DNA from: Staphylococcus phage S6
Direction: 5' to 3' (one strand)
Sequence record: LC680885.1
Length of the DNA: 64,000 nucleotides
The notes beneath the pieces are model-generated. The model did no database searches. It was not told the origin of the DNA and saw nothing but the letters and a program-made list of their open reading frames with translations. How positions within the stretch are numbered: the stretch's first letter is position 1; every line of letters begins with the position of its first letter. The translations under genes were made by a program, and so were the position numbers. This document shows, piece by piece, positions 592 through 55,752 of the stretch.

Positions 592-1140
592 TTATTTTTC
601 TAATAGTAAATCAATTAAATCTTGTTTACGAGCATTTTTATTATACTCAATTTCTTTAGAATCTAATTCTTCTTTAAGCTCAGCTACAGTGAATTCATTT
701 AAATCTTCTTCTGTAACTTCGACTTCTTCAGAACCTTGTTCTTCTACTTTTTCTTCGTTAGTAGGAGCTTCTTCAGAACTTTGTTCTTCTTTAGTTTCTT
801 CTTTTACTTCGTCTGATACTTCGCTATCTGTTCCTTCATCCACTTGCTTCTCTTCGCTGCTGCTTTCATCATTGCTCTGTTCCTCTTGTGATTGCGTATC
901 ATTTGATTCAGAAACTGCTTCATTTTTATCTTCACTCTTATTTTCTTTTTTATTTGATTTATCGCTTGGATATACATAGTCTTCATCAACAATTGTTACT
1001 TGTAAACCTAAACGTCTAAATAAACGAATTTGTGAACCTGAAGCACGGAAAGGTTTAACAAAAGGACCTTTACCTTTACCAGGCACAAATGCTTTTTCAT
1101 TAATAATAATGAAATTATTATCTTCATTGAAATTTAACAT
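592..1140 (-). CDS. acidic Ser/Glu-rich protein with N-terminal PGKGxGP..KP module
   Basis: 182-aa ORF. N-terminus FIIINEKAFVPGKGKGPFVKPF resembles the N-terminus of the 779-aa tail-fibre-like protein at 3195-5534. The rest is a low-complexity acidic S/E/K-rich region. Confidence 0.55.
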   Translation of the reverse strand: MLNFNEDNNFIIINEKAFVPGKGKGPFVKPFRASGSQIRLFRRLGLQVTIVDEDYVYPSDKSNKKENKSEDKNEAVSESNDTQSQEEQSNDESSSEEKQVDEGTDSEVSDEVKEETKEEQSSEEAPTNEEKVEEQGSEEVEVTEEDLNEFTVAELKEELDSKEIEYNKNARKQDLIDLLLEK

Positions 1141-1212
1141 AAATTAGTAATCTCCTTTACCATATTTTATTTTATAAATAAAAGTTAAGGAAGGATCTTA
1201 TAAAAATCCTTC

Positions 1213-1500
1213 TTAACTAAATGTTCCCCATGCGTTACCAATACGTTGTCCTTTACCATTTGATTTACCAATTGGCACGTATACATATTGTCCTTTAAAT
1301 TTACCTGAAACCCAGATAAGACCATCAAAGTCTTGGATTTCTTCGTATTTAATAGAGTCGCCTTTTTTCATGAATGGACCTGTAGGCCATCCAGTCCATG
1401 GACCATTTTTACGAGTAATAATTCCTGAAGCAACATTACATTTGAAAGTAGCTTTTTCAGTTTTCCATAGAATACCTGCTGAATTACGTTTCCATTTAGC
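1213..1500 (-). repeat. SH3b-encoding segment, copy 1 (about 85% nt identity to 2176-2465)
   Basis: Direct nucleotide comparison of the 3' ends of the two lysin genes. Confidence 0.8.
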
Positions 1501-2010
1501 AGATGTAACAGCTTTCTTAGGAGCTGCTTTCTTAACTACTTTTTTCTTAGGAGCTGCTTTCTTAGTAGTTGCTTTTTTAGTAGCTGTACTACTAAAGGCT
1601 GGACGAATTACTCCCCAAAATCCTGTATAATCATGGAATACTTTAGCTGCAGGTGAACCATTGCTACCTGCGTTAAACCAGTTCTGGTCAATTGAATAGA
1701 AATTGTTTAAGTTAGCTGAAGTGATAATACCTGTATGACCATAAACATCATATGGAGGATTAGCCCAAATAGCTATATCTCCTGGTTGAGGTAAGAATGA
1801 TGGAGTATTTTTAATAAGTTTCCATCCTGAAGGCATTGTATTACTTTTAAGATCTTTAGCGTTACCCCAAGGCCAGAATTTTCCATCAGTTAAATAATTA
1901 CAATAACCGATAGTCAAATCCATACATTGAGCTCCATAAGCTCCATCCATGTCAAGTCTACGACCAATACGATTATTAACCCAATTCAAAGCTTGAGTTT
2001 TAGTTTTCAT
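1213..2010 (-). CDS. endolysin, CHAP-domain peptidase with C-terminal SH3b (SH3_5) cell-wall-binding domain
   Basis: N-terminal CHAP signature (conserved Cys in GAQCMDL..., His in YGHTGII). Lys/Ala/Thr-rich linker. C-terminal about 95 aa nearly identical to the C-terminus of the neighbouring amidase (WKRNSAGILWKTEKATFKC...GKFKGQYVYVP...), typical of staphylococcal SH3b. Confidence 0.85.
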   Translation of the reverse strand: MKTKTQALNWVNNRIGRRLDMDGAYGAQCMDLTIGYCNYLTDGKFWPWGNAKDLKSNTMPSGWKLIKNTPSFLPQPGDIAIWANPPYDVYGHTGIITSANLNNFYSIDQNWFNAGSNGSPAAKVFHDYTGFWGVIRPAFSSTATKKATTKKAAPKKKVVKKAAPKKAVTSAKWKRNSAGILWKTEKATFKCNVASGIITRKNGPWTGWPTGPFMKKGDSIKYEEIQDFDGLIWVSGKFKGQYVYVPIGKSNGKGQRIGNAWGTFS

Positions 2011-2107
2011 ATTTTATTCAAACCCTTTCGATAAATTTTCTTTATTTCTTTATATTTAGTTGTTCTTTTATAAAAATAATATGTTTCATAATAGTATAAA
2101 AATAAAT

Positions 2108-2140
2108 ACCCTAACGAATCTTTAATATGATCGTTAGGGT
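2108..2140 (-). terminator. rho-independent terminator hairpin ACCCTAACGA/TCGTTAGGGT
   Basis: 10-bp perfect inverted repeat flanked by A/T runs, immediately downstream (minus-strand sense) of the amidase gene. Confidence 0.6.
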
Positions 2141-2175
2141 ATATAAAATTATAATTTAAATTATAGAATCATTTA

Positions 2176-2465
2176 TTAGCTAAATGTTCCCCATGCTGGA
2201 CCAATACGTTTACCGTTACCATTTGATTTACCTACTGGTACGTATACATATTGTCCCTTAAATTTACCTGAAACCCAAATATATCCGTTAAAATCTTGGA
2301 TTTCATCATATTTAATAGTATCACCTTTAGACATACGAGGACCTTGAGGCCATCCAGTCCATGGACCATTTTTACGAGTAATAATTCCTACAGATACACC
2401 ACATTTGAAAGTAGCTTTTTCAGTTTTCCATAGAATACCTGCTGAATTACGTTTCCAAGTAGTTG
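2176..2465 (-). repeat. SH3b-encoding segment, copy 2
   Basis: Direct nucleotide comparison with 1213-1500. Confidence 0.8.
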
Positions 2466-3126
2466 AAGTTTCAGTACTTGTTTTCTTAGGTTTAGCAGGT
2501 GCTTTAGTTTTAGTAGTAGATTTAGTTGCTGTTGAAGTTTTAGCTGTAGAAGTAGCACCATTTTTCATATAAGCTAGAACCTTTTTATCTACATTAGAAA
2601 CACTACGAGACATACCGCATGCAGCTAATAAGTTACCTGGATCTTGTTTGTCTGCTTGGATATCTTGATGCCCTGGCATATTTGTACTTGCATTAATTTT
2701 ATATTCTTTACATAAGAAAGCAAGAACACGACAATAGTTATCAAATGATTTTAATGAACGACTTCTATTAGAGAAGTAACATCCTTCAACACCAATAGCA
2801 CCATCATTAGCATCAATACCATACCAAGAATTATCAGTAGGTGTATTGTACATAACATGCCATGCTTTTTCATCTAAAGGAACACAGATAATACATTCTT
2901 TATCATCAACAAAGATATGAGCTGACGCTGTATAGTTCCAATCAATATTATATGTGTTACGGTAATAATCAACATTATTTTGAGCTGTTGTATTAGGGTT
3001 TCCTGTGTCATGAGCAACAATAAATTTAGGTCCGTTAAGCTTGTCTCCAGCTCTACGAGTACCTATTGGTAAAAAATCAGTATAAACAGGAACACCGTTC
3101 CATGTACCGATATGTTTTTTAGCCAT
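2176..3126 (-). CDS. endolysin, N-acetylmuramoyl-L-alanine amidase (Amidase_2/PGRP type) with C-terminal SH3b domain
   Basis: Amidase_2-like N-terminal domain (FIVAHDTGNPNTTAQNNVDYY...HIFVDD...). Thr/Lys-rich linker. C-terminal SH3b paralogous to that of 1213-2010. Confidence 0.85.
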   Translation of the reverse strand: MAKKHIGTWNGVPVYTDFLPIGTRRAGDKLNGPKFIVAHDTGNPNTTAQNNVDYYRNTYNIDWNYTASAHIFVDDKECIICVPLDEKAWHVMYNTPTDNSWYGIDANDGAIGVEGCYFSNRSRSLKSFDNYCRVLAFLCKEYKINASTNMPGHQDIQADKQDPGNLLAACGMSRSVSNVDKKVLAYMKNGATSTAKTSTATKSTTKTKAPAKPKKTSTETSTTWKRNSAGILWKTEKATFKCGVSVGIITRKNGPWTGWPQGPRMSKGDTIKYDEIQDFNGYIWVSGKFKGQYVYVPVGKSNGNGKRIGPAWGTFS

Positions 3127-3194
3127 AAAAAATTTCCTCCTTGATATTTATATTACTAATTAAAGTAATTTCTATATTTAAGTGTTCTATATTT

Positions 3195-5534
3195 TTAATA
3201 CTTGATTTCTGTAGATACGATTAATTTATTTTGGTATCTTCCACCTCTAGTGTAAACTTTACTATCAGTGTCACCTACATTAATACTATTTTCAGATCCA
3301 TAACCTATACATTCATCTAAGAATAAATTACTACCTGATGAAGCTTGGAAGTCTTTTCCTTGATAACTTTCAAATGCAATACAACCTAAATTCCATGATT
3401 GCGTGTCTGCATTTACATCAGCTACATTACCTCCATCATTTCTTCCATATATACCATTTATTCTAATGATTTTTAATCCATCATGAGTAGTTGATCCGTT
3501 ATTTGATTTAACACCATTCAATCCTTTATCGGTTCCATTATCCATACCTATACAATTAATTTCTATTATATTAGGTTTAGAACCATCGGCTCCAATATGA
3601 TAATTTAAACCATCAAAACTATTATAATTACCTTTACAGCTATCAAGAATAATATCTTTACCACCAACAATAGCAAGACCATTGTAACTTGAAGCGGAAT
3701 GATAAAAATTACATTTCTTAAAGAATGCACTGTTATTTGAAGTTAAATTCAATTCAACACAGTTTCTTCCACCATATATATTTAAATTTTCAAAATATAT
3801 ATTTGAAGCTAGACTTGTTAACTGTATATTTGAAGAAGATATTAAAGGTATTACATTACTATTTGAAGGTTTATTATCATTAATATTTGAATAAACTTTA
3901 GTGCCATCAGTAAACCATGAATTAGGCGTGTTTTCAACTTCATCAATACTATTTACTTTCTTTATATCAATACTATTATCTAGAGTTACAACTTTATCGG
4001 TAGAAGATCTACTAAATTCATAAGTTCTATTTTTATCAGAAGTTAGTGTCCATGAAGGTTCATCAGCCATAATAATATTCACATTATTACCTGTACCTAT
4101 TATATTAATGCTTTTATTAAAGGCTTTTGTAATTAATGCACCACCAATTCTAAAATAATTGCCATCAGCAACCATAATTGTATCATTATCATTGACTTTA
4201 GGTATTACTACTTTAAAAGATTTAAATGGGGTTTCTTTAGATAAACCATCATTAGAATCATTACCATTAACAGCATCTAAGTAGTAAGTAGTTCCTCCTG
4301 ATAATCTATTAGTAGTTATATCATATTTCACTCCAAAAGTACCTTTTCCATCAGTAACAATTCTATTTTTTAATATTTCATTACCATAATTGAAATCATT
4401 AGGTTTTCTAACTGTTATTGGAAGAGTAGGTGCATAATTACCATCAAGACCGGGTAAACCTTGTAGACCTTGAGTTCCAATCTTACCTGTATCACCTTTT
4501 AACCCATTTAATTGTTCTTCAGTAAAATCAGAGTACTCGAAAGGATCTCCTTTTTCACCTTTTAATAGATCTAATTGTTCTTGAGTGAAATCGGAATATT
4601 CAAAAGGGTCACCTTTTTCACCTTTTAACTCAGATAACTGTTCTTCAGTAAAATCAGAGTACTCGAAAGGATCTCCTTTTAATCCATTTAACTGCTCTTC
4701 AGTAAAATCAGAGTATTTGAAGGGGTCGCCTTTAGGACCTTGTATACCTGGATCACCTTCATACATTTCGGCATTTTCTATCATATAATTCTTAAGATTT
4801 TCTTTATAATCTAATAAATTATTTTCAAAATCATCTATTTTATTATTAAATGAATCTTGTGAAGTTTTTAATTCTTCAGATTTATCTTTTATAAGATTTA
4901 ATTTTTCTTCAACCTTAATTACATCATTTTCCATGTTCTTAACATAATTTGTAGTCTCACTAAGTTTTTCCATTTCATCATTAAGACTCATTGTATTGTT
5001 ATAATTACTATTGAATTGTTCTCTTACAGTTTCAAAATCAGTTAAAGTATCTTTCATACTACTTAATTTATTATTCATATCTTCTATTGTTGAAATTACA
5101 TCTTCTTTTTCAGATTGGAGGTCTAATTTTTTATCTTCAATACTATATTTAAAACTATCTAGCTCACTCAAATATGAATTAAGATTATCATCATCAATTA
5201 AATTTTCTTTAATTAAGTTAAGTTTTTCTTCCGCTTTTCCATTAATATTATCTATATCATTAGATATTATTTTTATCTGTTTAAAAGCTTCATTTACTTG
5301 AAGATACTTTTGTTTTATAAAATCTTCAATAGAGAAATAATCAGCTACGTCATATTCTCCATCTGAATTTAGATCAACATATTCATTTTTATTTACCTTT
5401 ACATATTGAATATTCATTAAATCATAATAATCTAATGTATTTCTATCAACATAATAAGGTTTATTTATAGGTCCCATACCTTTACCCGGAATATAAGTTT
5501 TTTGAGGAACTATAATTAGTACACTATCTTCCAT
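3195..5534 (-). CDS. tail fibre / receptor-binding protein with coiled-coil, collagen-like repeat region and C-terminal beta-helix (pectate-lyase-like, possible depolymerase)
   Basis: 779 aa. N-terminal PGKGMGP..KP module. Long coiled-coil-like N/K/E-rich stretch. Five tandem copies of KGDPFEYSDFTEEQLxxL followed by a GxY triplet run (KGDTGKIGTQGLQGLPGLDG). C-terminal Asn/Gly/Ser-rich part with repetitive beta-helix-like pattern (NIYGGRNCVELNLTSNNSAFFKKCNFYHS...). Confidence 0.6.
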   Translation of the reverse strand: MEDSVLIIVPQKTYIPGKGMGPINKPYYVDRNTLDYYDLMNIQYVKVNKNEYVDLNSDGEYDVADYFSIEDFIKQKYLQVNEAFKQIKIISNDIDNINGKAEEKLNLIKENLIDDDNLNSYLSELDSFKYSIEDKKLDLQSEKEDVISTIEDMNNKLSSMKDTLTDFETVREQFNSNYNNTMSLNDEMEKLSETTNYVKNMENDVIKVEEKLNLIKDKSEELKTSQDSFNNKIDDFENNLLDYKENLKNYMIENAEMYEGDPGIQGPKGDPFKYSDFTEEQLNGLKGDPFEYSDFTEEQLSELKGEKGDPFEYSDFTQEQLDLLKGEKGDPFEYSDFTEEQLNGLKGDTGKIGTQGLQGLPGLDGNYAPTLPITVRKPNDFNYGNEILKNRIVTDGKGTFGVKYDITTNRLSGGTTYYLDAVNGNDSNDGLSKETPFKSFKVVIPKVNDNDTIMVADGNYFRIGGALITKAFNKSINIIGTGNNVNIIMADEPSWTLTSDKNRTYEFSRSSTDKVVTLDNSIDIKKVNSIDEVENTPNSWFTDGTKVYSNINDNKPSNSNVIPLISSSNIQLTSLASNIYFENLNIYGGRNCVELNLTSNNSAFFKKCNFYHSASSYNGLAIVGGKDIILDSCKGNYNSFDGLNYHIGADGSKPNIIEINCIGMDNGTDKGLNGVKSNNGSTTHDGLKIIRINGIYGRNDGGNVADVNADTQSWNLGCIAFESYQGKDFQASSGSNLFLDECIGYGSENSINVGDTDSKVYTRGGRYQNKLIVSTEIKY
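4495..4745 (-). repeat. tandem repeat with 51-bp period, about 5 copies, inside the tail fibre gene
   Basis: Repeated ...ttcagtaaaatcagagtactcgaaaggatctcctttt... units visible in the nucleotide sequence. They encode the KGDPFEYSDFTEEQL repeats. Confidence 0.85.
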
Positions 5535-7659: not shown

Positions 7660-8928
7660 TTATTTTCTAAAAGTTCCTTCAATACTATCTTTAATAATAA
7701 ATAATATACACGGAAGTAATACATAATCTTCCATATTCATATCATATTTATCATCATAGTAATTAAACACTTTACTTAATATTTTTTCTTCTATCTTTTC
7801 ATCATTCATATACATTGAGATTAATTTATATCTATCATCAAAGTAAGTTAAACTTTTAGTGCCTTGATAGTCTTCATTAACTTCATTAATCTTAGTTAAA
7901 TTACTCAATTCTATAAAATCGTTTAATCCATCTAATACTTCAGTGTCTTCTATACTTTTATGAACGAAGCTTATTTCTTTATACTTCTCTCTAAACATTT
8001 TTAAGAAATTATCCTTAGTGTCATTAAGAGTAATAACATTAGGTAAAGTCTTTTTATCCTTTAATTTTTCATATAGAGAGAATTTATAATTCTTTTGATT
8101 TATTCTTTCATTCTTAGGATTTTTATCTTTATAAGGTAATATATTAGAAAGATAAGTACTAGATTTTACTAATAGATTATTGTCATAAATAAATCTGGAT
8201 AAATTCAAATCAATATATTTAGTTGATGCGACTGCACTAAATTCATCTTCATAGTAAATAAAAGTATTTAATGAAGAATTATAGAAATGATCAATAAATA
8301 TTTGTGAAAATTCATCAGCGTATTTAATGCTATGATTGACTTGATAGAAATCTTCTTCTAGTATCAATGATTTATTATCTGTTCCAATATTGGAAAATAC
8401 TGTTCTATATACGTTTGATACCTGATTTTCAATATCTTCTGTATTAACATTAAAATTCTGATATTGTATTTTATAGTAAGCGGAATTCTCTAATGAACTC
8501 ATTTCTACATTAGTTACACGATATATTCTACTAGTTGCATTTTCTTTAGACTGATATTGAAATACAATAAAATCATCTGGTAAAGGTTCAATAGTACCTG
8601 GCAATATAACTGCTTCAGATTCTAAATCTTTTTCAGTTCCCCATTCCTCATCCCATTCAATTGTAGGATTCATTTCAGCTACGTTATACAAAGGGAAGTC
8701 TTTTAATTTATTATATTTCAAAGGAGAATTATCTCCAATAATTTCTTCAACATTATCTAGTGAACGATCAGAGGTAGATTTCTCATGATCTTTACTATAG
8801 TATGTAACAAAACTAGGAGCACCTGCTTGAAACTTACTATATTTTTCTGTACCGGATAAATATGAGGATACGTAACTATTTACAATATCTTTTGGTTGTA
8901 ATTCATCATTTGATATAAATGTACCCAT
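7660..8928 (-). CDS. hypothetical protein
   Basis: 422-aa ORF lying 20 nt downstream of the 641-aa ORF on the same strand. Confidence 0.55.
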   Translation of the reverse strand: MGTFISNDELQPKDIVNSYVSSYLSGTEKYSKFQAGAPSFVTYYSKDHEKSTSDRSLDNVEEIIGDNSPLKYNKLKDFPLYNVAEMNPTIEWDEEWGTEKDLESEAVILPGTIEPLPDDFIVFQYQSKENATSRIYRVTNVEMSSLENSAYYKIQYQNFNVNTEDIENQVSNVYRTVFSNIGTDNKSLILEEDFYQVNHSIKYADEFSQIFIDHFYNSSLNTFIYYEDEFSAVASTKYIDLNLSRFIYDNNLLVKSSTYLSNILPYKDKNPKNERINQKNYKFSLYEKLKDKKTLPNVITLNDTKDNFLKMFREKYKEISFVHKSIEDTEVLDGLNDFIELSNLTKINEVNEDYQGTKSLTYFDDRYKLISMYMNDEKIEEKILSKVFNYYDDKYDMNMEDYVLLPCILFIIKDSIEGTFRK

Positions 8929-9614: not shown

Positions 9615-10643
9615 TTAGTTTAGTTTAAATTCCTCATCTAATATTTTTTCTAAATTTTCAATAACTTTATCATCTTCATCAATTTCAGGTTTCTTATCAG
9701 GAGCTTTCTTGAAGATAGATACAAATTTATTTCCATTACTTTGAACCCATTTTTGTGCTTCTTTGAAACGATCTGCAACTATTCCAATAGGTATTCTTCG
9801 AATTTTATCTTTACCTTTATATTTAACAGGTACTTCTAAAGCAGCGTTTTTACCACCAGTACGTTTGGCTACTACTACAACATTACTTGAATCAATCCTA
9901 ATACCTTTACTTTTAGCTTTTATTTTAAAATTCATACAAGCTTTAGCAAAATCCGCTTCAAGCGTATCAGGCTCAACAATTCCTTCTTGAACTGCAACGT
10001 CTGAAGTATTACCACAATCTTCACATACTAATTGTCCTGATTCATTTGGAGACATTTTAGATCCACATTCTTCACAAATAGGTTCTTCTTTATCAGTATC
10101 AATATCTCTTTTTAATTCTTCATTTAATTTTTTCTTACTATTTTTCAATTTCTCTTTATATTCTGCAATCTTTCTTTTTTTCTCTTTTTTATCTTTAGTA
10201 TTTTTAATATCTTCAATATCTTTTCGAAGTTCTAATTTTAATTTATCCTTCTTAATTCTACTTTCAGCAGCTTTTTTAGCTTCATCTGAAGGTTTCATCT
10301 TTTTAAGTTCAGGAAAAACTAATGACTTATTTTTATTCATTATTCTTTCATACTGTCCACCTGAAGCAATAGTTCTATTAATTCTAACTACAGCAAAATC
10401 TCTTTCTGTATTTTCTCCACTAACTAGATTTTTACATTTTACTTCTAAGTTTATATTAGTTCCCATATAAACAAATTTAATAGGTTGGAAGTTAGCATAT
10501 CCTTGTTTTGTTAAACCATCTATCCCTTTTTGATATTGGTTTATGATAACACCTATCATGCTTTTAAAAAAATCTTGTTCTGGATCTTCATTAACTAAAT
10601 TAAATTCTTTGTCTAGAGATTCTTCTAAAGATTTCAAATCCAT
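9615..10643 (-). CDS. hypothetical protein with C4 zinc ribbon and terminal LEESLDKEF-type motifs
   Basis: 342 aa. N-terminus MDLKSLEESLDKEFNL, C-terminus ENLEKILDEEFKLN. CEECGSKMSPNESGQLVCEDCG resembles the ribbon in ORF 5714-7639. Confidence 0.55.
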   Translation of the reverse strand: MDLKSLEESLDKEFNLVNEDPEQDFFKSMIGVIINQYQKGIDGLTKQGYANFQPIKFVYMGTNINLEVKCKNLVSGENTERDFAVVRINRTIASGGQYERIMNKNKSLVFPELKKMKPSDEAKKAAESRIKKDKLKLELRKDIEDIKNTKDKKEKKRKIAEYKEKLKNSKKKLNEELKRDIDTDKEEPICEECGSKMSPNESGQLVCEDCGNTSDVAVQEGIVEPDTLEADFAKACMNFKIKAKSKGIRIDSSNVVVVAKRTGGKNAALEVPVKYKGKDKIRRIPIGIVADRFKEAQKWVQSNGNKFVSIFKKAPDKKPEIDEDDKVIENLEKILDEEFKLN

Positions 10644-15461: not shown

Positions 15462-16688
15462 TTGGCTAATATGAATTATGAAAATAAAACACTTAATGAA
15501 AAAGAAGTATCGACATTATTAAGTGTTGGTAAAGATGACATTACATTAGACAAGTTAAAAGAATTATTTGCTTTTAGACAAAATACAGAACCAATGTATA
15601 ATCCAACGGATAAATTTACATTAAAGAAAGATCTAGTCTATAATAAAAAAGATGAAAAAACTACTGTAGGTAGATATATATTTAATAAATTTATTTTAGA
15701 TAATAAAATTGGACCGATTATAGGCTATATGAATCGTGATATGGGCGGTTCTGGAGTAGGTAAACTTCAATCTGATTTATCAAATTTATTACTTAATGAT
15801 ATTATTACTACACAAGAAATGTCAAATTATATCGATAAATTACAATGGTTAGGTTTCTCTATAGCCAGTTTTATTAATTCTAGTCTAACTACTACAATGA
15901 TGACTGCTACTGAAAAAGTTAAACAGAAAAAAGAAGAGTTATTAGTTAAATATGAAAAAGCATTGAATACTCCTGGAGAGGAATTAAATGCAATATCAGT
16001 TATTGAAAAAGAATTAATCAATTTAAGTAAAGAAGAATTAAAAGGTTTAGCTGATTTAGATATTTATGATAGTGGTTCACGTGGTTCATTCGGCAATAAC
16101 TATAAATTAACTGCATTAATTCGTGGAGCAAATAAAAACTTTGCTGATCCAAGTAAAATTAGAATTGCTAAAAGCTCACTAGCTGAAGGAATTGATCCTA
16201 ATGAACTTTATATGTTTGGAGATATTATGACTGCAGGTTCAGCTGGACGTGCACTAGGTACTCAAGAAGGAGGGTATCAGGCTAAGCAACTAATGTCGGC
16301 CTTCCAAACAACTGTTTTAGATAAAAAAGGTTCTGACTGTAGAACAAATCATTTCCTTAAATTAATATTAGATAAATCAAACGCATCATTAATGATGTAT
16401 AGATATTTTAAAGATAATAACGCAAGATCAGGTCAATTAGTTTTATTAACTCCTGAAAATGTAGATGATTACATGGGTAGAGTTTTAGAATTTAGAAGTC
16501 CTATGTATTGTGCAAGTGAAGATATTTGTAGTAAATGTGCAGGAGAATTACCATATAAATTAGGAATTGAAAATATTGGTCTATTAGTTAACCAAGTTGC
16601 TCAAGCAATCGTAACAAGTTCAATGAAATCTTTCCATGATATGACGATTAAACAAAATGAAATAGATATAGAAAGTTATATAGAATAA
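15462..16688 (+). CDS. multisubunit RNA polymerase beta-prime-like fragment (regions F-G, trigger-loop region), non-canonical split subunit
   Basis: 408 aa. KTTVGRYIF aligns to beta-prime DTTVGRAIL. IYDSGSRGS aligns to MMADSGARGS. LAEGIDPNELYMFGDIMTAGSAGRALGTQEGGYQAKQLMSAFQTTVLDKKGSDCRT aligns to [54 protein letters not shown]. The start may be TTG at 15462 or ATG at 15471. Confidence 0.65.
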   Translation: MANMNYENKTLNEKEVSTLLSVGKDDITLDKLKELFAFRQNTEPMYNPTDKFTLKKDLVYNKKDEKTTVGRYIFNKFILDNKIGPIIGYMNRDMGGSGVGKLQSDLSNLLLNDIITTQEMSNYIDKLQWLGFSIASFINSSLTTTMMTATEKVKQKKEELLVKYEKALNTPGEELNAISVIEKELINLSKEELKGLADLDIYDSGSRGSFGNNYKLTALIRGANKNFADPSKIRIAKSSLAEGIDPNELYMFGDIMTAGSAGRALGTQEGGYQAKQLMSAFQTTVLDKKGSDCRTNHFLKLILDKSNASLMMYRYFKDNNARSGQLVLLTPENVDDYMGRVLEFRSPMYCASEDICSKCAGELPYKLGIENIGLLVNQVAQAIVTSSMKSFHDMTIKQNEIDIESYIE

Positions 16689-19160: not shown

Positions 19161-19233
19161 TGTCCCATAGCTCAACGGTAGAGCGATCGGCTGTTAACCG
19201 GTTTGTTGAAAGTTCGAATCTTTCTGGGACAGC
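19161..19233 (+). tRNA. tRNA-Asn (anticodon GTT)
   Basis: Cloverleaf: acceptor TGTCCCA/TGGGACA, U8, D-arm GCTC-AACGGTA-GAGC with GG, anticodon stem ATCGG/CCGGT, loop CTGTTAA, T-arm GAAAG-TTCGAAT-CTTTC, discriminator G. No encoded CCA. Confidence 0.8.
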
Positions 19234-28391: not shown

Positions 28392-29123
28392 TTATGATTT
28401 AATTCCATCAGATTCTCTTAATTTATCAATTAATTCTATAAATTCATTGTATTTCTTATCTACAATTTTAAGATAATTATATTGAGAATTAGAAGCAACT
28501 TCATCTTTTTTCTTTTCTTTTAATTCATCACGTTTTTGGTAGTGATTATTTTTACCTTTAATTTCTATTAATAAATTAAAATCAGGAAGATAAAAATCAG
28601 GCATGTAGAAATGTTTCTTATTAGCAAACGTATAAGGAATAGCTATATTAGAAGGAGATAATACATTATTAGATTTAAAATCCATTTGTTTATCTAAGAA
28701 TTCTAAGAAATCTTTTTCATAAGATCCAACATATTGAGTAGGTAAACCTTTACCAGAACTCCAATGATATTTACCTGAAATTCTTCTATTTTCTAACATT
28801 TTATTTTGCATTTCAGGGTCATTTAATAAAGTAGTCTTACCGTATTTTTTATTCATTCTATCTTTAAATTGTTGTCTATATTTATCTTTACATACTTTAT
28901 CATGTACACGTTCATACTTTTCAGTTTGTTCATTAAATTTAGTAGGTTTACCGCATATAATGCACGTACCATGTGTTTTCTTATTTCTGAAATTAAAATA
29001 TACATTAGCTGCAGATAATTCACCTAATTCTTTTTCATGAAATTTCTCCATATGATTATAAAGACCTTTTTTATCTACATATTTCTTTGTACAGAATGGA
29101 CATTTATGATATTTTGTAGCCAT
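28392..29123 (-). CDS. zinc-finger protein (C2H2-like HKCPFC...HMEKFH plus additional Cys/His pairs)
   Basis: 243 aa. N-terminal C2H2 motif, then a second CxxC...H...C cluster. Confidence 0.5.
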   Translation of the reverse strand: MATKYHKCPFCTKKYVDKKGLYNHMEKFHEKELGELSAANVYFNFRNKKTHGTCIICGKPTKFNEQTEKYERVHDKVCKDKYRQQFKDRMNKKYGKTTLLNDPEMQNKMLENRRISGKYHWSSGKGLPTQYVGSYEKDFLEFLDKQMDFKSNNVLSPSNIAIPYTFANKKHFYMPDFYLPDFNLLIEIKGKNNHYQKRDELKEKKKDEVASNSQYNYLKIVDKKYNEFIELIDKLRESDGIKS

Positions 29124-52506: not shown

Positions 52507-53658
52507 TTATTTTTCTTTTGTTAAGTTGATCAAGTCTTCAAAATCTGGATCAATAATATTTTTAACTTCTTTCAAATCTAATTCTTTATCATGTTTTATA
52601 GAATTAAATTTAACAATTGTTTCAGGTGTATCAAGTTCATCATCTAATATGAATTGATACTTTTCATCTACTTTTACTTCCTTGATATTTTTGTTGTTAA
52701 ATTGAACTTTGATATTTTTATCAGAACTTGAAATTTGCTTAATTATATCAACATCATCCTTAGAACTAGAAACAAATCTTACATAATCATTTTCTTGACG
52801 TAACTCATTGATTATTTCTAGTTTCTTTTGGTCTGTTAGCTCCTCATATTGATCCATATTTATAGTAACGTAAGTTGGTGCGTCTTCATTTTCAATTAAT
52901 TCTACATTGTAATTATCTGTATCAAGATCATTAGTTACGACTAAAAATCCTTTATCTTCAGTATCTTTAAATGAATATCTTGAATATGAACCAGTGTAAT
53001 ATACTTTATCTTTATATTCATGATAATCATGAATATGACCATATACAGAAACACCTTTAGTAACTCTCATTAATTCTTTTGCTTCTAATATTGGAGCTGA
53101 CTTAACAGGATTTTCTGAGTCATCTTCATCTGGTACAAATGTAACAAAATCAATCATTCCATGACCAAATATATTATCATACGTATTGTCTTCAACTGAA
53201 TATAGTAGCTCATTATAAAATTCTTTCTTATCATCTGGATATTCTTCAGGTATATATAGTACATTAACTTCTTTACCATTGTGCTTAATTAACTCTGATT
53301 CTAGTGAATTAATAATTTTAAAATTATCATATTCTAATTCGTTTTGGTTAAATACATCAAGTTGATTAAAATCATGTGTTTTAGTTCCTTTAATCAATCT
53401 GAGTAAGAAATTTTTATCTTTAGATAATTCAAACATTGTATCCATGAATTCTAGAACTTCTTTACCAGCAGGTTCATTAAATCTAATAACTCTATCAAAT
53501 AAATCACCTGAAATAACTACCATATCAATATCATCATTATCTTTTATATATTTTAAAAAGTATTTATCTAATTCTTCTGATAATTTCTTAGGATTCTTTT
53601 TACCATAGTGTATATCAGCTATTACAACTGTCTTAAATTCATTACTCATTTTCATCAT
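52507..53658 (-). CDS. calcineurin-like metallophosphoesterase, SbcD/Mre11 (T4 gp47)-like nuclease
   Basis: VVIADIHYG...VISGDLFDR phosphoesterase motifs I-III. Length 383 aa. Confidence 0.55.
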   Translation of the reverse strand: MMKMSNEFKTVVIADIHYGKKNPKKLSEELDKYFLKYIKDNDDIDMVVISGDLFDRVIRFNEPAGKEVLEFMDTMFELSKDKNFLLRLIKGTKTHDFNQLDVFNQNELEYDNFKIINSLESELIKHNGKEVNVLYIPEEYPDDKKEFYNELLYSVEDNTYDNIFGHGMIDFVTFVPDEDDSENPVKSAPILEAKELMRVTKGVSVYGHIHDYHEYKDKVYYTGSYSRYSFKDTEDKGFLVVTNDLDTDNYNVELIENEDAPTYVTINMDQYEELTDQKKLEIINELRQENDYVRFVSSSKDDVDIIKQISSSDKNIKVQFNNKNIKEVKVDEKYQFILDDELDTPETIVKFNSIKHDKELDLKEVKNIIDPDFEDLINLTKEK

Positions 53659-54025
53659 CCTTTGCTAAAAAGTCTATCATCTTCATAAGTGTTTCTTTTA
53701 CATAGTCTAAACTTTTATAAGTTGCTTTATCGTCTTTCATCATTAAATTGTTGAAATATATTTCTGGAGACAAATCATCTATTAAGTGACAACAATCAAA
53801 ACCAATTATTCCATTATTATCATACGTAATTCCACCATGAGAATAATATTCAACATCTTTATCATAATTATCTCCAACTTCAATATAGCCATTTAAAAAT
53901 CCTAAATCATGTCTGACTATAAATGCTTTATAACCTTTATATTCAAATTCATACTTATTCTTTCTAACTCCAAGTATTTTATCTTCTTTTTCTATAATAT
54001 GTTTAAGTGTATCAGCATCAATCAT
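53642..54025 (-). CDS. hypothetical protein
   Basis: 127 aa. Overlaps the previous gene by 17 nt. Confidence 0.45.
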   Translation of the reverse strand: MIDADTLKHIIEKEDKILGVRKNKYEFEYKGYKAFIVRHDLGFLNGYIEVGDNYDKDVEYYSHGGITYDNNGIIGFDCCHLIDDLSPEIYFNNLMMKDDKATYKSLDYVKETLMKMIDFLAKDDENE

Positions 54026-54030
54026 TTTGT

Positions 54031-54519
54031 TTATTCATCTCCATTATCTCGATTATCTATTTCCATTAATAGTTGCATTTTTCTATCAAATTCACCAGAT
54101 TCAATATTTTCTTTAATAGTTTCTTTTAATTTACTGTCAATATTTTCTCTATTAGTTTTAATGAATTCAAATACTGCTTTAGCTAATTCATCATCCATAC
54201 TAATTAAATTAGCTTCATTATTTTCATCAAAATCTAAGTAAGCAAAAGCTGTAGTTCCAAAACATGGTAACCCACCAAACATCATGAAATTAATATCTTC
54301 TGTTGTAAATCTGTCTTCTACTTTTCCAAAATAAGTAAATGAAACTACTGAATGCATTGGTGCTGGCATTACATCCATTGTTATATTCTCTACCGGTATA
54401 TCTAATTCTTCAGCCATAACTTCATACATATTTTCTTCTTCAAATTGGATTTTCTTTCTAGTATAATTATCCTCATTAGGTTTAATAAAAACAAAATTAA
54501 TTTCCATTATCCATTTCAT
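54031..54519 (-). CDS. hypothetical protein
   Basis: 162-aa ORF. Confidence 0.5.
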   Translation of the reverse strand: MKWIMEINFVFIKPNEDNYTRKKIQFEEENMYEVMAEELDIPVENITMDVMPAPMHSVVSFTYFGKVEDRFTTEDINFMMFGGLPCFGTTAFAYLDFDENNEANLISMDDELAKAVFEFIKTNRENIDSKLKETIKENIESGEFDRKMQLLMEIDNRDNGDE

Positions 54520-54843
54520 CTCCTATAAATTAGTATTTTATTATATTTATATATTAATTCACATTTCAAAATTTCTTAACCAAAATTTTTTAAAATTCAC
54601 ACATAATAATATAATATTAGGGGTTAGGGGTTAAGAATTAAAAATATATAAATATCAATAATTACTTTAATATAATATATATTTAATATATAAATTCATT
54701 TTTAATAAATATATTTATTAAAAATAATATTAATAAAAAATTAATTAATAAATATTAATGAAATTTATACATGTATAAGAAAATAATGAAAACTAATAAA
54801 AAATGACTATAACAATTAAATATTAAAATAAAAGACAGAAAAG
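54520..54843. promoter_or_regulatory. extremely AT-rich (about 90% AT) divergent intergenic region; candidate bidirectional promoter cluster or origin-like region
   Basis: About 320 bp without an ORF between divergent gene blocks. Contains tatatattt/aatatta iterations and a GGGGTTAGGGGTTAAG element. Confidence 0.35.
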
Positions 54844-55752
54844 GTGAAAATATTGAAAACTTATGGTTTAAATGAATCAGAATTATATAGACAATTAAAC
54901 TTAGATGTAAATAGATTTACTAAGCAAATTAAATCAGAACATTTAATGGGTCAAGACCAATTAGCAGATACATTTAGTATTATTAAAAACCGTATAAACC
55001 AAGCTTCTAAAAACGAAGTAATAGATAAATTAGAGAATGGAGATATTCTTCTACTTAATTCAAAAGAAGTTAAATTACCTAACTTTATGCCAGTATTAAA
55101 CATTCAAGGCAATAAAGCTTTAGTAAATATCACTCCATATATCAAATCTAATATGAGTATTAATCCAAATACATTATTCGGTTTATCTCAAGCAGGATTA
55201 ATTAATATTAAAGTTAAGAAAGATGCTAATAAAATTAGAAACAATGCTAAATTATTAATTTATTCTAGTCAAATTTATTCTAAATTAACTACTAAAGTAA
55301 TGGATAAACTTTATGCAACTAATATTAATAAAAAAGATTCTGACTTAATTTCATACATGTTTGCAAAGTTCTTTTTAGTTAGTATTATTGGTAGAACTAA
55401 CGATGATTCAACAGAACAGATTGCATATAAATCATGTCACAATAGAACAGATTTTGAAGTTATTAAAGATATGGAAAGTAAATTTGATGGTCAATCTTCA
55501 ATGTTAAACCTATTCAGTTTATTCAAAGAATTTAAAAAACATCCTAACTTTAATAAATTTTCATCAAGATCATTCATTGAGAACTTTACTAAAATGTACG
55601 GAGAAACTTCAATATTAGCTATTGATCATTTACCTTCATTCTTTACTATGATCTTTTCAGCTTATGTAAATGCAGGAATTAATAAAGAATTTATCATTCT
55701 TAATGCAATTAATGATAAAATTATTATCAACTGTTATAGAAGTTTCTTTTAA
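54844..55752 (+). CDS. hypothetical protein
   Basis: 302 aa. GTG at 54844 or TTG at 54853 (AAGGTG 7 nt upstream). Confidence 0.5.
   Translation: MKILKTYGLNESELYRQLNLDVNRFTKQIKSEHLMGQDQLADTFSIIKNRINQASKNEVIDKLENGDILLLNSKEVKLPNFMPVLNIQGNKALVNITPYIKSNMSINPNTLFGLSQAGLINIKVKKDANKIRNNAKLLIYSSQIYSKLTTKVMDKLYATNINKKDSDLISYMFAKFFLVSIIGRTNDDSTEQIAYKSCHNRTDFEVIKDMESKFDGQSSMLNLFSLFKEFKKHPNFNKFSSRSFIENFTKMYGETSILAIDHLPSFFTMIFSAYVNAGINKEFIILNAINDKIIINCYRSFF

Follow-up and report, generated by a model that had tools for sequence, protein, structure and literature searches.

Two tandem lysin genes of Staphylococcus phage S6, their SH3b repeat and their place among staphylococcal lysis cassettes

Giant Staphylococcus phages have two endolysins which are "aligned tandemly" (PMC11498662), and since the gene pair has been published for PALS2, DC4, SA1 and S6 it is already known. 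For PALS2, the two proteins PALS2_239 and PALS2_240 were described with Pfam calls that match our own (Lee et al. 2021, PMC7982418), and DC4_0060/0061 is the corresponding pair in DC4 (PMC10638138). For SA1, lys210 and lys211 were each expressed alone and both were bactericidal (PMC9096886). S6_ORF93 is lytic on nine staphylococcal strains and its linker has been studied; lysis by whole enzymes was seen with staphylococci, whereas B. subtilis and E. coli were not lysed (PMC11498662). Since publications on PALS2, SA1, S6 and DC4 already cover the gene pair, the domains and the lysis by each enzyme, the scientific weight of the locus is small. Its practical value, which is also known already, lies in candidate anti-staphylococcal enzymes and natural bimodular designs.

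We analyzed a stretch of 64,000 nucleotides from phage S6 (LC680885.1), which is called the window in this paper. The ORF listing places the lysin pair in tandem on the minus strand at 1213-2010 and 2176-3126, and the view of an earlier note on this DNA that these are two separate and complete lysin genes was confirmed. When we compared the locus with its published relatives, we found that PALS_2 is 97.7% identical to the window DNA and that both counterpart genes are annotated there as 'lysin'. PALS2_239 is 100% identical to the CHAP-SH3_5 protein, and PALS2_239 and PALS2_240 have Pfam architecture, order and spacing in common with the present pair (PMC7982418); PALS2 differs in a small number of substitutions, which affect the amidase protein and the flanks, and no record in the phage collection that was searched is identical to the window. 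The S6_ORF93 sequence, machine-read from S1 Fig, matches the CHAP-SH3_5 protein if reading errors are allowed for and is apparently identical with it (PMC11498662); it agrees equally well with PALS2_239. Orthologues of the amidase gene are PALS2_240, DC4_0061, SA1 lys211 and, if "aligned tandemly" is read in this sense, S6_ORF94. The most diverged member of the clade is vB_StaM_SA1 (about 85% protein identity). Its lys210 and lys211 show the same two-gene arrangement and domains, but its CHAP linker has 13 additional aa and its spacer measures only 139 nt. The two-lysin arrangement is conserved in 10 jumbo phages. We consider it highly probable that both proteins are endolysins of a jumbo phage from the PALS2/S6/MarsHill group of Staphylococcus phages, a group with kinship to Bacillus phage AR9, and that they act by the mechanism proposed in the following sections. 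The phage DNA contains uracil.

Gene layout, domains and catalytic residues

The first gene of the pair (2176-3126, minus strand) encodes an Amidase_2-SH3_5 endolysin of 316 aa. Its Amidase_2 catalytic domain involves aa 33-165 (2632-3030; PF01510, E=1.8e-19) and scored 70.8 bits against a cut-off of 26. The domain is followed by a Thr/Lys/Ala-rich linker (aa 188-223; 2458-2565), which is variable and carries indels in the alignment of 10 orthologues, and a conserved Met187 is located just before this linker. The C-terminal part (aa 224-316 plus stop; 2176-2457) is encoded by copy A of an SH3_5 (SH3b) coding repeat. The second gene (1213-2010, minus strand) encodes a CHAP-SH3_5 endolysin of 265 aa. 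Here, the CHAP catalytic domain comprises aa 22-110 (1681-1947; PF05257, E=1.4e-12), the profile score was 48.3 bits against a cut-off of 26 and the PDB matches were 8h1i, 6ist and 4csh. A Lys-rich linker follows (aa 139-172; 1495-1596), the DNA of which is a 15/30-nt tandem repeat, and then copy C of the SH3b repeat (aa 173-265 plus stop; 1213-1494). Both repeat copies were detected by Pfam and blastn. The SH3_5 (SH3b_P1) profile (PF08460) occupies the C-terminal ~90 aa of both proteins, with hits at aa 184-247 of the CHAP protein (E=5e-15) and aa 235-298 of the amidase protein (E=4e-14) and scores of 55.8 and 52.8 bits against a cut-off of 22. Thus, all four domain scores exceed the Pfam cut-offs, and the CHAP, Amidase_2 and SH3_5 assignments of the earlier note held in the profile search. 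PDB matches of the SH3b domains were 7aqh, the ALE-1 domain and the lysostaphin SH3b. The lysin pair is flanked by genes of virion proteins, an Ig-like protein and a tail fibre.

Inspection of the catalytic domains indicated that C29, H91, D108 and N110 of the CHAP protein correspond in the alignment to the conserved C, H, E and N residues of 8h1i and that they are invariant in 10 phages. We take these residues to be catalytic from what is known of the family, and the assignment is putative. For the amidase protein, the alignment places H39, E114, H153 and D161 at positions conserved in PlyL/XlyA; these residues are also invariant in the 10 phages and are putative zinc ligands and catalytic residues. 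The Amidase_2 enzyme would thus be a zinc amidase cleaving the MurNAc-L-Ala bond, whereas the CHAP enzyme would hydrolyze a peptide bond of the stem or of the cross-bridge; both bond specificities are those expected from the families. Each enzyme may be held on the staphylococcal peptidoglycan by its own SH3_5 domain, which is a putative binding module. A hydrophobicity scan of the two ORFs did not reveal any hydrophobic 19-mer. Since both lysins lack a signal peptide and a membrane segment, they should accumulate in the cytoplasm.

Transcription signals, holin and virion proteins

The 165-nt spacer between the two genes carries a terminator-like structure (2096-2140, minus strand), which follows the amidase gene and consists of a hairpin (2108-2140; ACCCTAACGA / TCGTTAGGGT, then AUUUAUUUUUAU) and a U-tract (2096-2107). 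The hairpin had a folding energy of -20.8 kcal/mol (z = -4.2) and none of 200 shuffled sequences (0/200) folded as well. It is kept in ten related phages with compensatory changes at 3 stem pairs, and a terminator is annotated at this place in Madawaska, MarsHill and Machias. The SA1 copy of the hairpin is without a clear U-tract. The terminator-like hairpin which the earlier note had seen between the genes is therefore well supported. A second terminator-like hairpin (GAAGGATTTTTATAAGATCCTTC) with a T-rich tail follows the CHAP gene (1190-1212, minus strand), where a terminator is annotated in Madawaska and Machias.

The consensus AACA-N6-TA is the late-promoter consensus of Bacillus phage AR9 (PMC5312081). 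We found a match to this motif (AACACTTAAATA; 3175-3186, minus strand) upstream of the amidase ATG, which is conserved before the amidase gene in 10/10 phages. A second motif of this type (AACAACTAAATA; 2053-2064, minus strand) is located between the terminator and the CHAP gene. Its distance from the ATG is 41-43 nt in each of the 10 phages, and it is kept even where the remaining spacer has diverged. The exact 15-mer GAACANNTAAATATA occurs twice, and these are the only exact copies in the window. When all 44 genes of the window were considered, AACA-N6-TA was present upstream of 7, compared with 1.7 +/- 1.3 expected. The amidase gene has an AAGGAGG ribosome-binding site 9 nt before its ATG (3136-3142, minus strand), and a ribosome-binding site is annotated at this place in Madawaska. 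The CHAP gene is preceded by a Shine-Dalgarno-like GAAAGGG 12 nt before its ATG (2023-2029, minus strand), of which GAAAGG is conserved in the clade. A scan for sigma-70 promoters yielded 35 sites versus 34.3 in shuffled sequence and thus no excess, which is expected because the phage has its own RNA polymerases.

With a conserved AR9-type motif before both genes, the lysins look like two monocistronic late units, and by analogy to Bacillus phage AR9, in which the motif was defined, this would cover promoter use, transcript ends and timing. Each unit would consist of an AACA-N6-TA motif, a ribosome-binding site, the ORF and a hairpin terminator; the motifs and hairpins are present in the DNA, their functions are predicted, and the motif may be read by the non-virion RNA polymerase of the phage. 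The earlier note had suggested that the two genes could be expressed differently. Since both of them carry the same late-promoter motif, such a difference is unlikely at the promoter level. A late promoter was not found by MEME in MarsHill (Korn et al.). The conserved AR9-type late-promoter motif before both lysins is an addition of the present analysis and offers a route to mapping late promoters in this clade.

The anatomy of the spacer also bears on the question whether an intron, a frameshift or read-through might join the two ORFs into a single lysin. Lysin genes split by introns are frequent among staphylococcal myoviruses, and the equivalent CHAP gene of S2G3 has an HNH endonuclease insert. 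However, each ORF of the present pair comes with a separate ATG, ribosome-binding site, stop codon and wall-binding domain, the spacer holds a terminator and a promoter motif and did not match any Rfam intron, and the orthologues are active when expressed singly. Moreover, a fusion would have the order Amidase-SH3b-CHAP-SH3b, an architecture not seen here. The probability of a joined lysin is therefore close to nil, with joining by an intron or a frameshift ruled out by the anatomy and the Rfam scan of the spacer, and the statement of the earlier note that the ORFs are separate remains valid.

To reach the cell wall, two cytoplasmic endolysins would depend on a holin. In line with the earlier note, we did not find a holin next to the lysins: there was no free-standing ORF for a small membrane protein beside them, every candidate with two hydrophobic segments was nested in a larger gene, and neither the hydrophobicity scan (ORFs >=35 aa) nor tblastn with the SA11 holin detected a Phage_holin_1 homologue or another holin in the window. 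Two ORFs with two such segments (1370-1630 and 2405-2572, both plus strand) were rejected because they are artefacts that arise antisense to the Lys/Ala/Thr-rich linkers. The holin gene of the relatives is not adjacent either but lies more than 100 kb away. In DC4, it is located at 205370-205909, compared with 53361-55274 for the lysins, and in SA1 the holin ORF117 lies at ~92 kb and ORF210/211 at ~202 kb. The lysins may thus reach the wall once the membrane has been opened by a holin of the Phage_holin_1 type whose gene lies more than 100 kb from theirs.

The distance from the holin might also suggest that one of the enzymes is a virion-associated peptidoglycan hydrolase for entry and not an endolysin, and the DC4 orthologues of the flanking genes (UFVDC4_00059, UFVDC4_00062) have indeed been detected in virions. 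However, scattered lysis genes are a known trait of this clade and hence no argument against an endolysin function. From this locus, the 15 DC4 virion proteins comprise the products of the flanking genes 00059 and 00062, whereas 00060 and 00061 are absent, and SA1 ORF210 and ORF211 are without mass-spectrometry evidence in the virion proteome. As far as these data go, the lysins are not virion proteins, but the proteomes are shallow (15 and 52 proteins) and absence from them is weak evidence. In addition, both enzymes have a C-terminal wall-binding domain, which virion hydrolases commonly lack (DC4 paper), and a tail lysozyme and a tape-measure protein with an M23 domain are already present in the clade. 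We consider a role in entry very improbable and continue to regard both proteins as endolysins.

The SH3b repeat and its history

The SH3b-coding 3' ends had been described in the earlier note as near-identical over ~285 nt (~85%), and our measurements came close to these values. The gapless alignment of 1213-1494 with 2176-2457 extends over 282 nt with 86.5% identity (blastn, E=2e-95), and within the 64 kb window the repeat occurs in these 2 copies only. The encoded domains agree at 79 of 93 residues (85%, E=2e-55). The similarity begins abruptly at the Trp of WKRNSAG, and neither the linkers nor the 3' flanks are related. The assumption that the duplication is recent did not stand. Both copies are present in 10/10 clade members, they cluster by orthologue and six differences between them are fixed. 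Within the 93-aa domain, fixed differences are located at residues 20 (N/G), 23 (S in one copy and V in the other throughout the ten phages, next to a variable residue 22) and 83 (K/N). This distribution indicates that the SH3b duplication is older than the ten-phage clade and that the copies are old paralogues. When we searched the IMG/VR viral contigs for further relatives of the amidase gene, none was found.

At synonymous sites, the two SH3b copies of one genome resemble each other (3 of 720 pairings), which is a modest gene-conversion signal from a test of ten phages representing about six independent lineages. Occasional gene conversion has probably homogenized the copies in part, but the signal could partly be due to parallel synonymous changes. 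For non-synonymous differences, there was no within-genome excess similarity (102 of 720 pairings), which means that the likeness of the copies does not stem from a co-adaptation of the two domains to the host. This hint of gene conversion is a small and testable addition of the present analysis. As a tentative extension, which we regard as possible rather than probable, the copies may evolve in concert: conversion would homogenize neutral sites, selection would hold the few fixed amino acid differences, and intra-cassette recombination would keep the type of binding domain matched. If so, the two enzymes would differ slightly in targeting, and a new binding domain could spread from one lysin gene to its neighbor. 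Such a process would explain the matched pairs, SH3_5 in the jumbo phages and SH3b_P2 in Silviavirus and S2G3.

Comparison with podovirus, LysK-type and Silviavirus lysins

For the CHAP-SH3b protein, full-length alignments were obtained with 8h1i and 8xyf (E=5e-43), two structures of 250-aa endolysins with a CHAP-linker-SH3b layout, which we take to be derived from podoviruses. The podovirus endolysin gene ORF009 of phage 66 also matched over its full length (34.6% identity). However, identity with 8h1i/8xyf and the podovirus lysins is only about 35%, the podovirus linker is shorter and the enzyme is the sole endolysin there.

The three Pfam families and the host wall are also common to the present pair and to LysK, LysGH15 and PlyTW. 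The earlier note had regarded the locus as a LysK/Twort-type lysin cut in two, and a recent fission of such a CHAP-Amidase_2-SH3b gene, combined with a fresh SH3b duplication, would be in line with the identity of the three families and with the 86.5% DNA identity of the SH3b copies. Several observations contradict this scenario. LysK-type enzymes are single polypeptides with the order CHAP-Amidase_2-SH3b, and lysK carries an intron, whereas the present genes are two ORFs in reverse order with the amidase first. Kayvirus genomes match the CHAP (about 40% identity) and SH3b (about 39%) domains only; aa 1-190 of the amidase did not give any kayvirus match at E<=1e-5, nor any match to a LysK/LysGH15 amidase structure at E<=1. 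Instead, this amidase is 65-69% identical to the N-terminal amidases of SA11, IME-SA4 and phiSP119-2. The SH3b domains are closest to that of 2638A ORF007 (E about 1e-22, compared with about 1e-10 for the LysGH15 SH3b), and both copies are present, and orthologue-specific, in 10/10 phages. A LysK fission thus appears extremely improbable, and the earlier assignment had to be given up in favor of a relation to SA11.

Silviavirus lytic modules encode two muralytic proteins (PMC7150955), and our domain scans agree with this. The order in SA11 is holin (gp170), Amidase_2-SH3b_P2 (gp171) and CHAP-SH3b_P2 (gp172). As in our pair, the amidase precedes the CHAP gene, and each gene has its own copy of one type of binding domain. 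Over aa 6-188, the present amidase shares 69% identity with its N-terminal counterpart in SA11 gp171, and the value is 65% for the N-terminal amidase in the Amidase_2-CHAP-SH3b_T endolysin of IME-SA4. In contrast, the SA11 binding domains are SH3b_P2 (59% identical to each other) and not SH3_5, its CHAP domain is only 31% identical to ours, the holin is located immediately upstream, and the two lysin genes are 13 nt apart without a terminator. S2G3 shows the gene order of SA11 and paired binding domains, with the CHAP gene interrupted by the HNH endonuclease insert.

This recurrence is of relevance for the question whether the two enzymes are redundant. Korn et al. raised the possibility of a 'captured' second lysin, in which case either enzyme alone would be sufficient for lysis. 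Each SA1 enzyme kills cells alone, and the clade has a third protein with Amidase_2 and PG_binding domains. On the other hand, ten diverged phages have kept both genes together with the catalytic residues, promoters and terminators, and the pairing of amidase and CHAP recurs in Silviavirus, in S2G3 and inside most single-chain staphylococcal endolysins. This conservation and recurrence argue for selection on having both activities, and we consider redundancy unlikely. The pair fits the two-gene amidase plus CHAP cassette type of Silviavirus with SH3_5 in place of SH3b_P2. The kinship with the Silviavirus pair rather than with LysK is a small addition of the present analysis. In our reading, large staphylococcal myoviruses have a recurrent lysis cassette in which the amidase gene precedes the CHAP gene, and the lysin pair of phage S6 is one form of it.

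Two separate lysin genes

The minus strand carries two complete lysin ORFs, which encode an Amidase_2-SH3_5 protein of 316 aa (2176-3126) and a CHAP-SH3_5 protein of 265 aa (1213-2010). Pfam matches above the curated cut-off were obtained for Amidase_2 (aa 33-165) and SH3_5 (aa 235-298) in the amidase and for CHAP (aa 22-110) and SH3_5 (aa 184-247) in the CHAP protein, and both coordinates and matches agree with the earlier note, which had described two adjacent ORFs, each with its own SH3b domain. In our alignments, CHAP residues C29, H91, D108 and N110 matched conserved positions of the endolysin structure 8h1i, and amidase residues H39, E114, H153 and D161 matched those of PlyL/XlyA; all eight were unchanged in 10/10 phages of this Staphylococcus jumbo phage clade. 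The C-terminal 93 residues of the two proteins share 85% identity. At the DNA level, where about 85% had been proposed for the SH3b-coding 3' ends, blastn gave 86.5% identity between 1213-1494 and 2176-2457 (282 nt ungapped, E=2e-95), and this block exists in two copies only in the window. Similarity sets in sharply at the WKRNSAG Trp; neither the linkers (one Lys-rich, one Thr/Lys-rich) nor the 3' flanks are related. The original observation is correct in every particular.

Just before its linker, the amidase ORF contains a methionine (Met187, about 2566-2568, minus strand, in AYMK) that is kept in 10/10 amidase proteins and has a weak AAAGG 11 nt upstream. This codon is a candidate internal start, which would yield a free linker-SH3b product. 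Products of this type from internal starts are known in some other endolysins.

Each lysin ORF has its own ATG, stop codon and ribosome-binding site (minus strand; AAGGAGG at 3136-3142 for the amidase, GAAAGGG at 2023-2029 for CHAP), and the spacer between them comprises 165 nt. The terminator-like hairpin suggested for this spacer was confirmed: a stem-loop (2108-2140, minus strand), followed by a U-tract, folds with -20.8 kcal/mol (z = -4.2), a value reached by 0/200 shuffles. It is kept in 10/10 phages, three of its stem pairs show compensatory changes, and the Madawaska, MarsHill and Machias records annotate a terminator there. An Rfam scan detected no intron near the hairpin. Joining of the two ORFs by an intron is ruled out by the separate start, ribosome-binding and stop signals, the terminator-type spacer and the lack of an Rfam intron, and the ORFs are really separate. 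In MarsHill (locus L009, spacer between 5044 and 5211), the 13-nt hairpin loop is the exact reverse complement of that in the window, and the whole palindromic terminator element is inverted between the two lineages.

Neither lysin contains a hydrophobic segment. As originally noted, no free-standing small membrane ORF adjoins the lysins, and no Phage_holin_1 homologue was found in the 64-kb window. The annotated holin of relatives is located far from the lysins (205 kb vs 53-55 kb in DC4; ORF117 at 92 kb vs 201-203 kb in SA1; gp047 vs gp152/153 in MarsHill). ORFs antisense to the lysin linkers (1370-1630 and 2405-2572, plus strand), with two apparent membrane segments, were rejected as holins; they are hydrophobic as by-products of the Lys/Ala/Thr-rich coding sequence of the linkers. 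The genes on either side of the lysins encode virion proteins: in DC4, both products, DC4_00059 and DC4_00062 (tail fibre), were seen by mass spectrometry. Virions of DC4 and SA1 yielded neither lysin, which favours endolysins over entry enzymes, although the two proteomes are shallow.

Late-promoter motifs and neighbouring genes

The phage group of the window comprises relatives of the Bacillus phage AR9 with their own RNA polymerases (Korn et al., MarsHill), and the late-promoter consensus of AR9 is AACA-N6-T(A/G) (PMC5312081). On the minus strand, we found exact matches between the terminator and the CHAP gene (AACAACTAAATA, 2053-2064) and just upstream of the amidase gene (AACACTTAAATA, 3175-3186). 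Their longer common form, GAACANNTAAATATA, has two exact occurrences in 64 kb, both at these lysin motifs. The motif lies 41-43 nt from the CHAP ATG in 10/10 phages, and Machias, PB50 and AH12 keep it although their remaining spacer differs; it also precedes the amidase gene in 10/10 phages. Within the window, the consensus is present 15-75 nt upstream of 7/44 genes vs 1.7 +/- 1.3 in random windows, other examples being 7660-8928 (-), 9615-10643 (-), 15471-16688 (+), 21796-22479 (-) and 28392-29123 (-). From this motif, which was defined in another phage, we infer that each lysin gene may form a monocistronic late unit. Since MEME found no late promoter in MarsHill (Korn et al.), the assignment may be of minor use.

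The lysins are flanked by genes for an acidic protein of 182 aa with a C-terminal HeH/SAP-like domain (592-1140, minus strand) and a tail-fibre-like protein of 779 aa (3195-5534, minus strand). Both proteins share the motif (V/I)PGKG(K/M)GP(F/I)xKP about 20 residues from the N-terminus, and a six-frame translation of the window yielded no further PGKGxGP. Within the tail-fibre-like gene, a 63-nt tandem repeat (4492-4733) encodes units of the GDPFEYSDFTEEQL type. This gene encodes 760-1139 aa in PALS2, DC4, MarsHill and Madawaska, and four smaller genes take its place in SA1, Machias, AH12, PB50 and LY01, a pattern suggesting a variable host-recognition slot adjoining the lysins. Elsewhere, tRNA-Asn (GTT) (19161-19233, plus strand) was the sole Rfam or ARAGORN match in the window. 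The DC4 record has a 94-nt 'tRNA-Phe' that reaches into the very beginning of the window, where ARAGORN found no tRNA-Phe; the window start may cut the gene.

Age of the SH3b duplication

The likeness of the two SH3b copies had been taken as a sign of recent duplication or recombination; a recent duplication is contradicted by the comparison of the ten phages. Their SH3b segments group by orthologue, and six sites are fixed differences between CHAP-linked and amidase-linked copies, which indicates that the duplication predates the clade. At 33/107 variable sites, the same two alleles occur in both paralogue groups. We examined this signal with six lineage representatives and all 720 pairings of CHAP-linked with amidase-linked copies; every row and column enters each pairing once, so that lineage-specific rates cancel. 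Paralogue distances within genomes summed to 266 differences vs a mean of 288.5 over all pairings, and only 2/720 pairings were as low. This excess likeness was wholly synonymous (94 vs 112.7 codon differences; 3/720), and non-synonymous differences showed none (104 vs 106.5; 102/720). Such a pattern would be expected if gene conversion took place occasionally while selection kept the amino-acid differences, and these data, a small effect in a small sample, are suggestive of it only.

Relation to known lysins

Over its first 6 kb, the window shares 97.7% identity with PALS_2, a Staphylococcus jumbo phage, and 96.5% with vB_SauM-UFV_DC4, with Madawaska, MarsHill, LY01, AH12, PB50, SA1 and Machias as more distant relatives, and all ten phages have both lysin genes in one common order. 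PALS2_239 and the CHAP-SH3b protein of the window are 100% identical, and the latter also matches S6_ORF93, an endolysin of giant phage S6, when machine-reading errors in the supplementary PDF sequence are allowed for. Exactly these Pfam calls were given for PALS2_239 and PALS2_240 (Lee et al. 2021, PMC7982418), and the DC4 paper lists DC4_0060 as CHAP + SH3 and DC4_0061 as amidase_2 + SH3 (PMC10638138). Zhang et al. 2022, whose title has 'Two Lysins', expressed SA1 lys210 and lys211 separately and found both bactericidal (PMC9096886). Thus, identical or orthologous proteins have already been put through most of the proposed experiments, and the lysin pair, real and correctly described, is already known.

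The proposed splitting of a LysK-type lysin did not hold. The domain order of LysK, the kayvirus endolysin, is the reverse of the amidase-then-CHAP order found here. Kayvirus genomes match only the CHAP (~40% identity) and SH3b (~39%) domains; the amidase had no kayvirus match at E<=1e-5 and no LysK/LysGH15 amidase chain at E<=1. Reversed order and a non-kayvirus amidase argue that the pair did not arise by fission of a LysK-type gene. The amidase shares 69% identity with the N-terminal amidase of Silviavirus SA11 gp171 and 65-69% with those of IME-SA4 and phiSP119-2. The CHAP domain has no close match (<=44% identity to any other); the whole CHAP-SH3b protein resembles in layout the 250-aa endolysin structures 8h1i and 8xyf (E=5e-43) as well as podovirus endolysin genes (e.g. 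phage 66 ORF009). The presence of genes for two muralytic proteins in Silviavirus lytic modules was already noted (PMC7150955). In SA11, the order is holin gp170, gp171 (Amidase_2-SH3b_P2) and gp172 (CHAP-SH3b_P2), and the binding domains of gp171 and gp172 are 59% identical. This order recurs in S2G3, whose CHAP gene contains an endonuclease insert, and IME-SA4 carries amidase then CHAP in one chain plus two SH3b_T repeats. Taken together, the reversed order and the likeness to SA11, S2G3 and IME-SA4 suggest that the jumbo-phage pair is one form of a recurring amidase-then-CHAP cassette whose two genes have the same type of binding domain, SH3_5 in the jumbo phages and SH3b_P2 in the Silviavirus-type pair.
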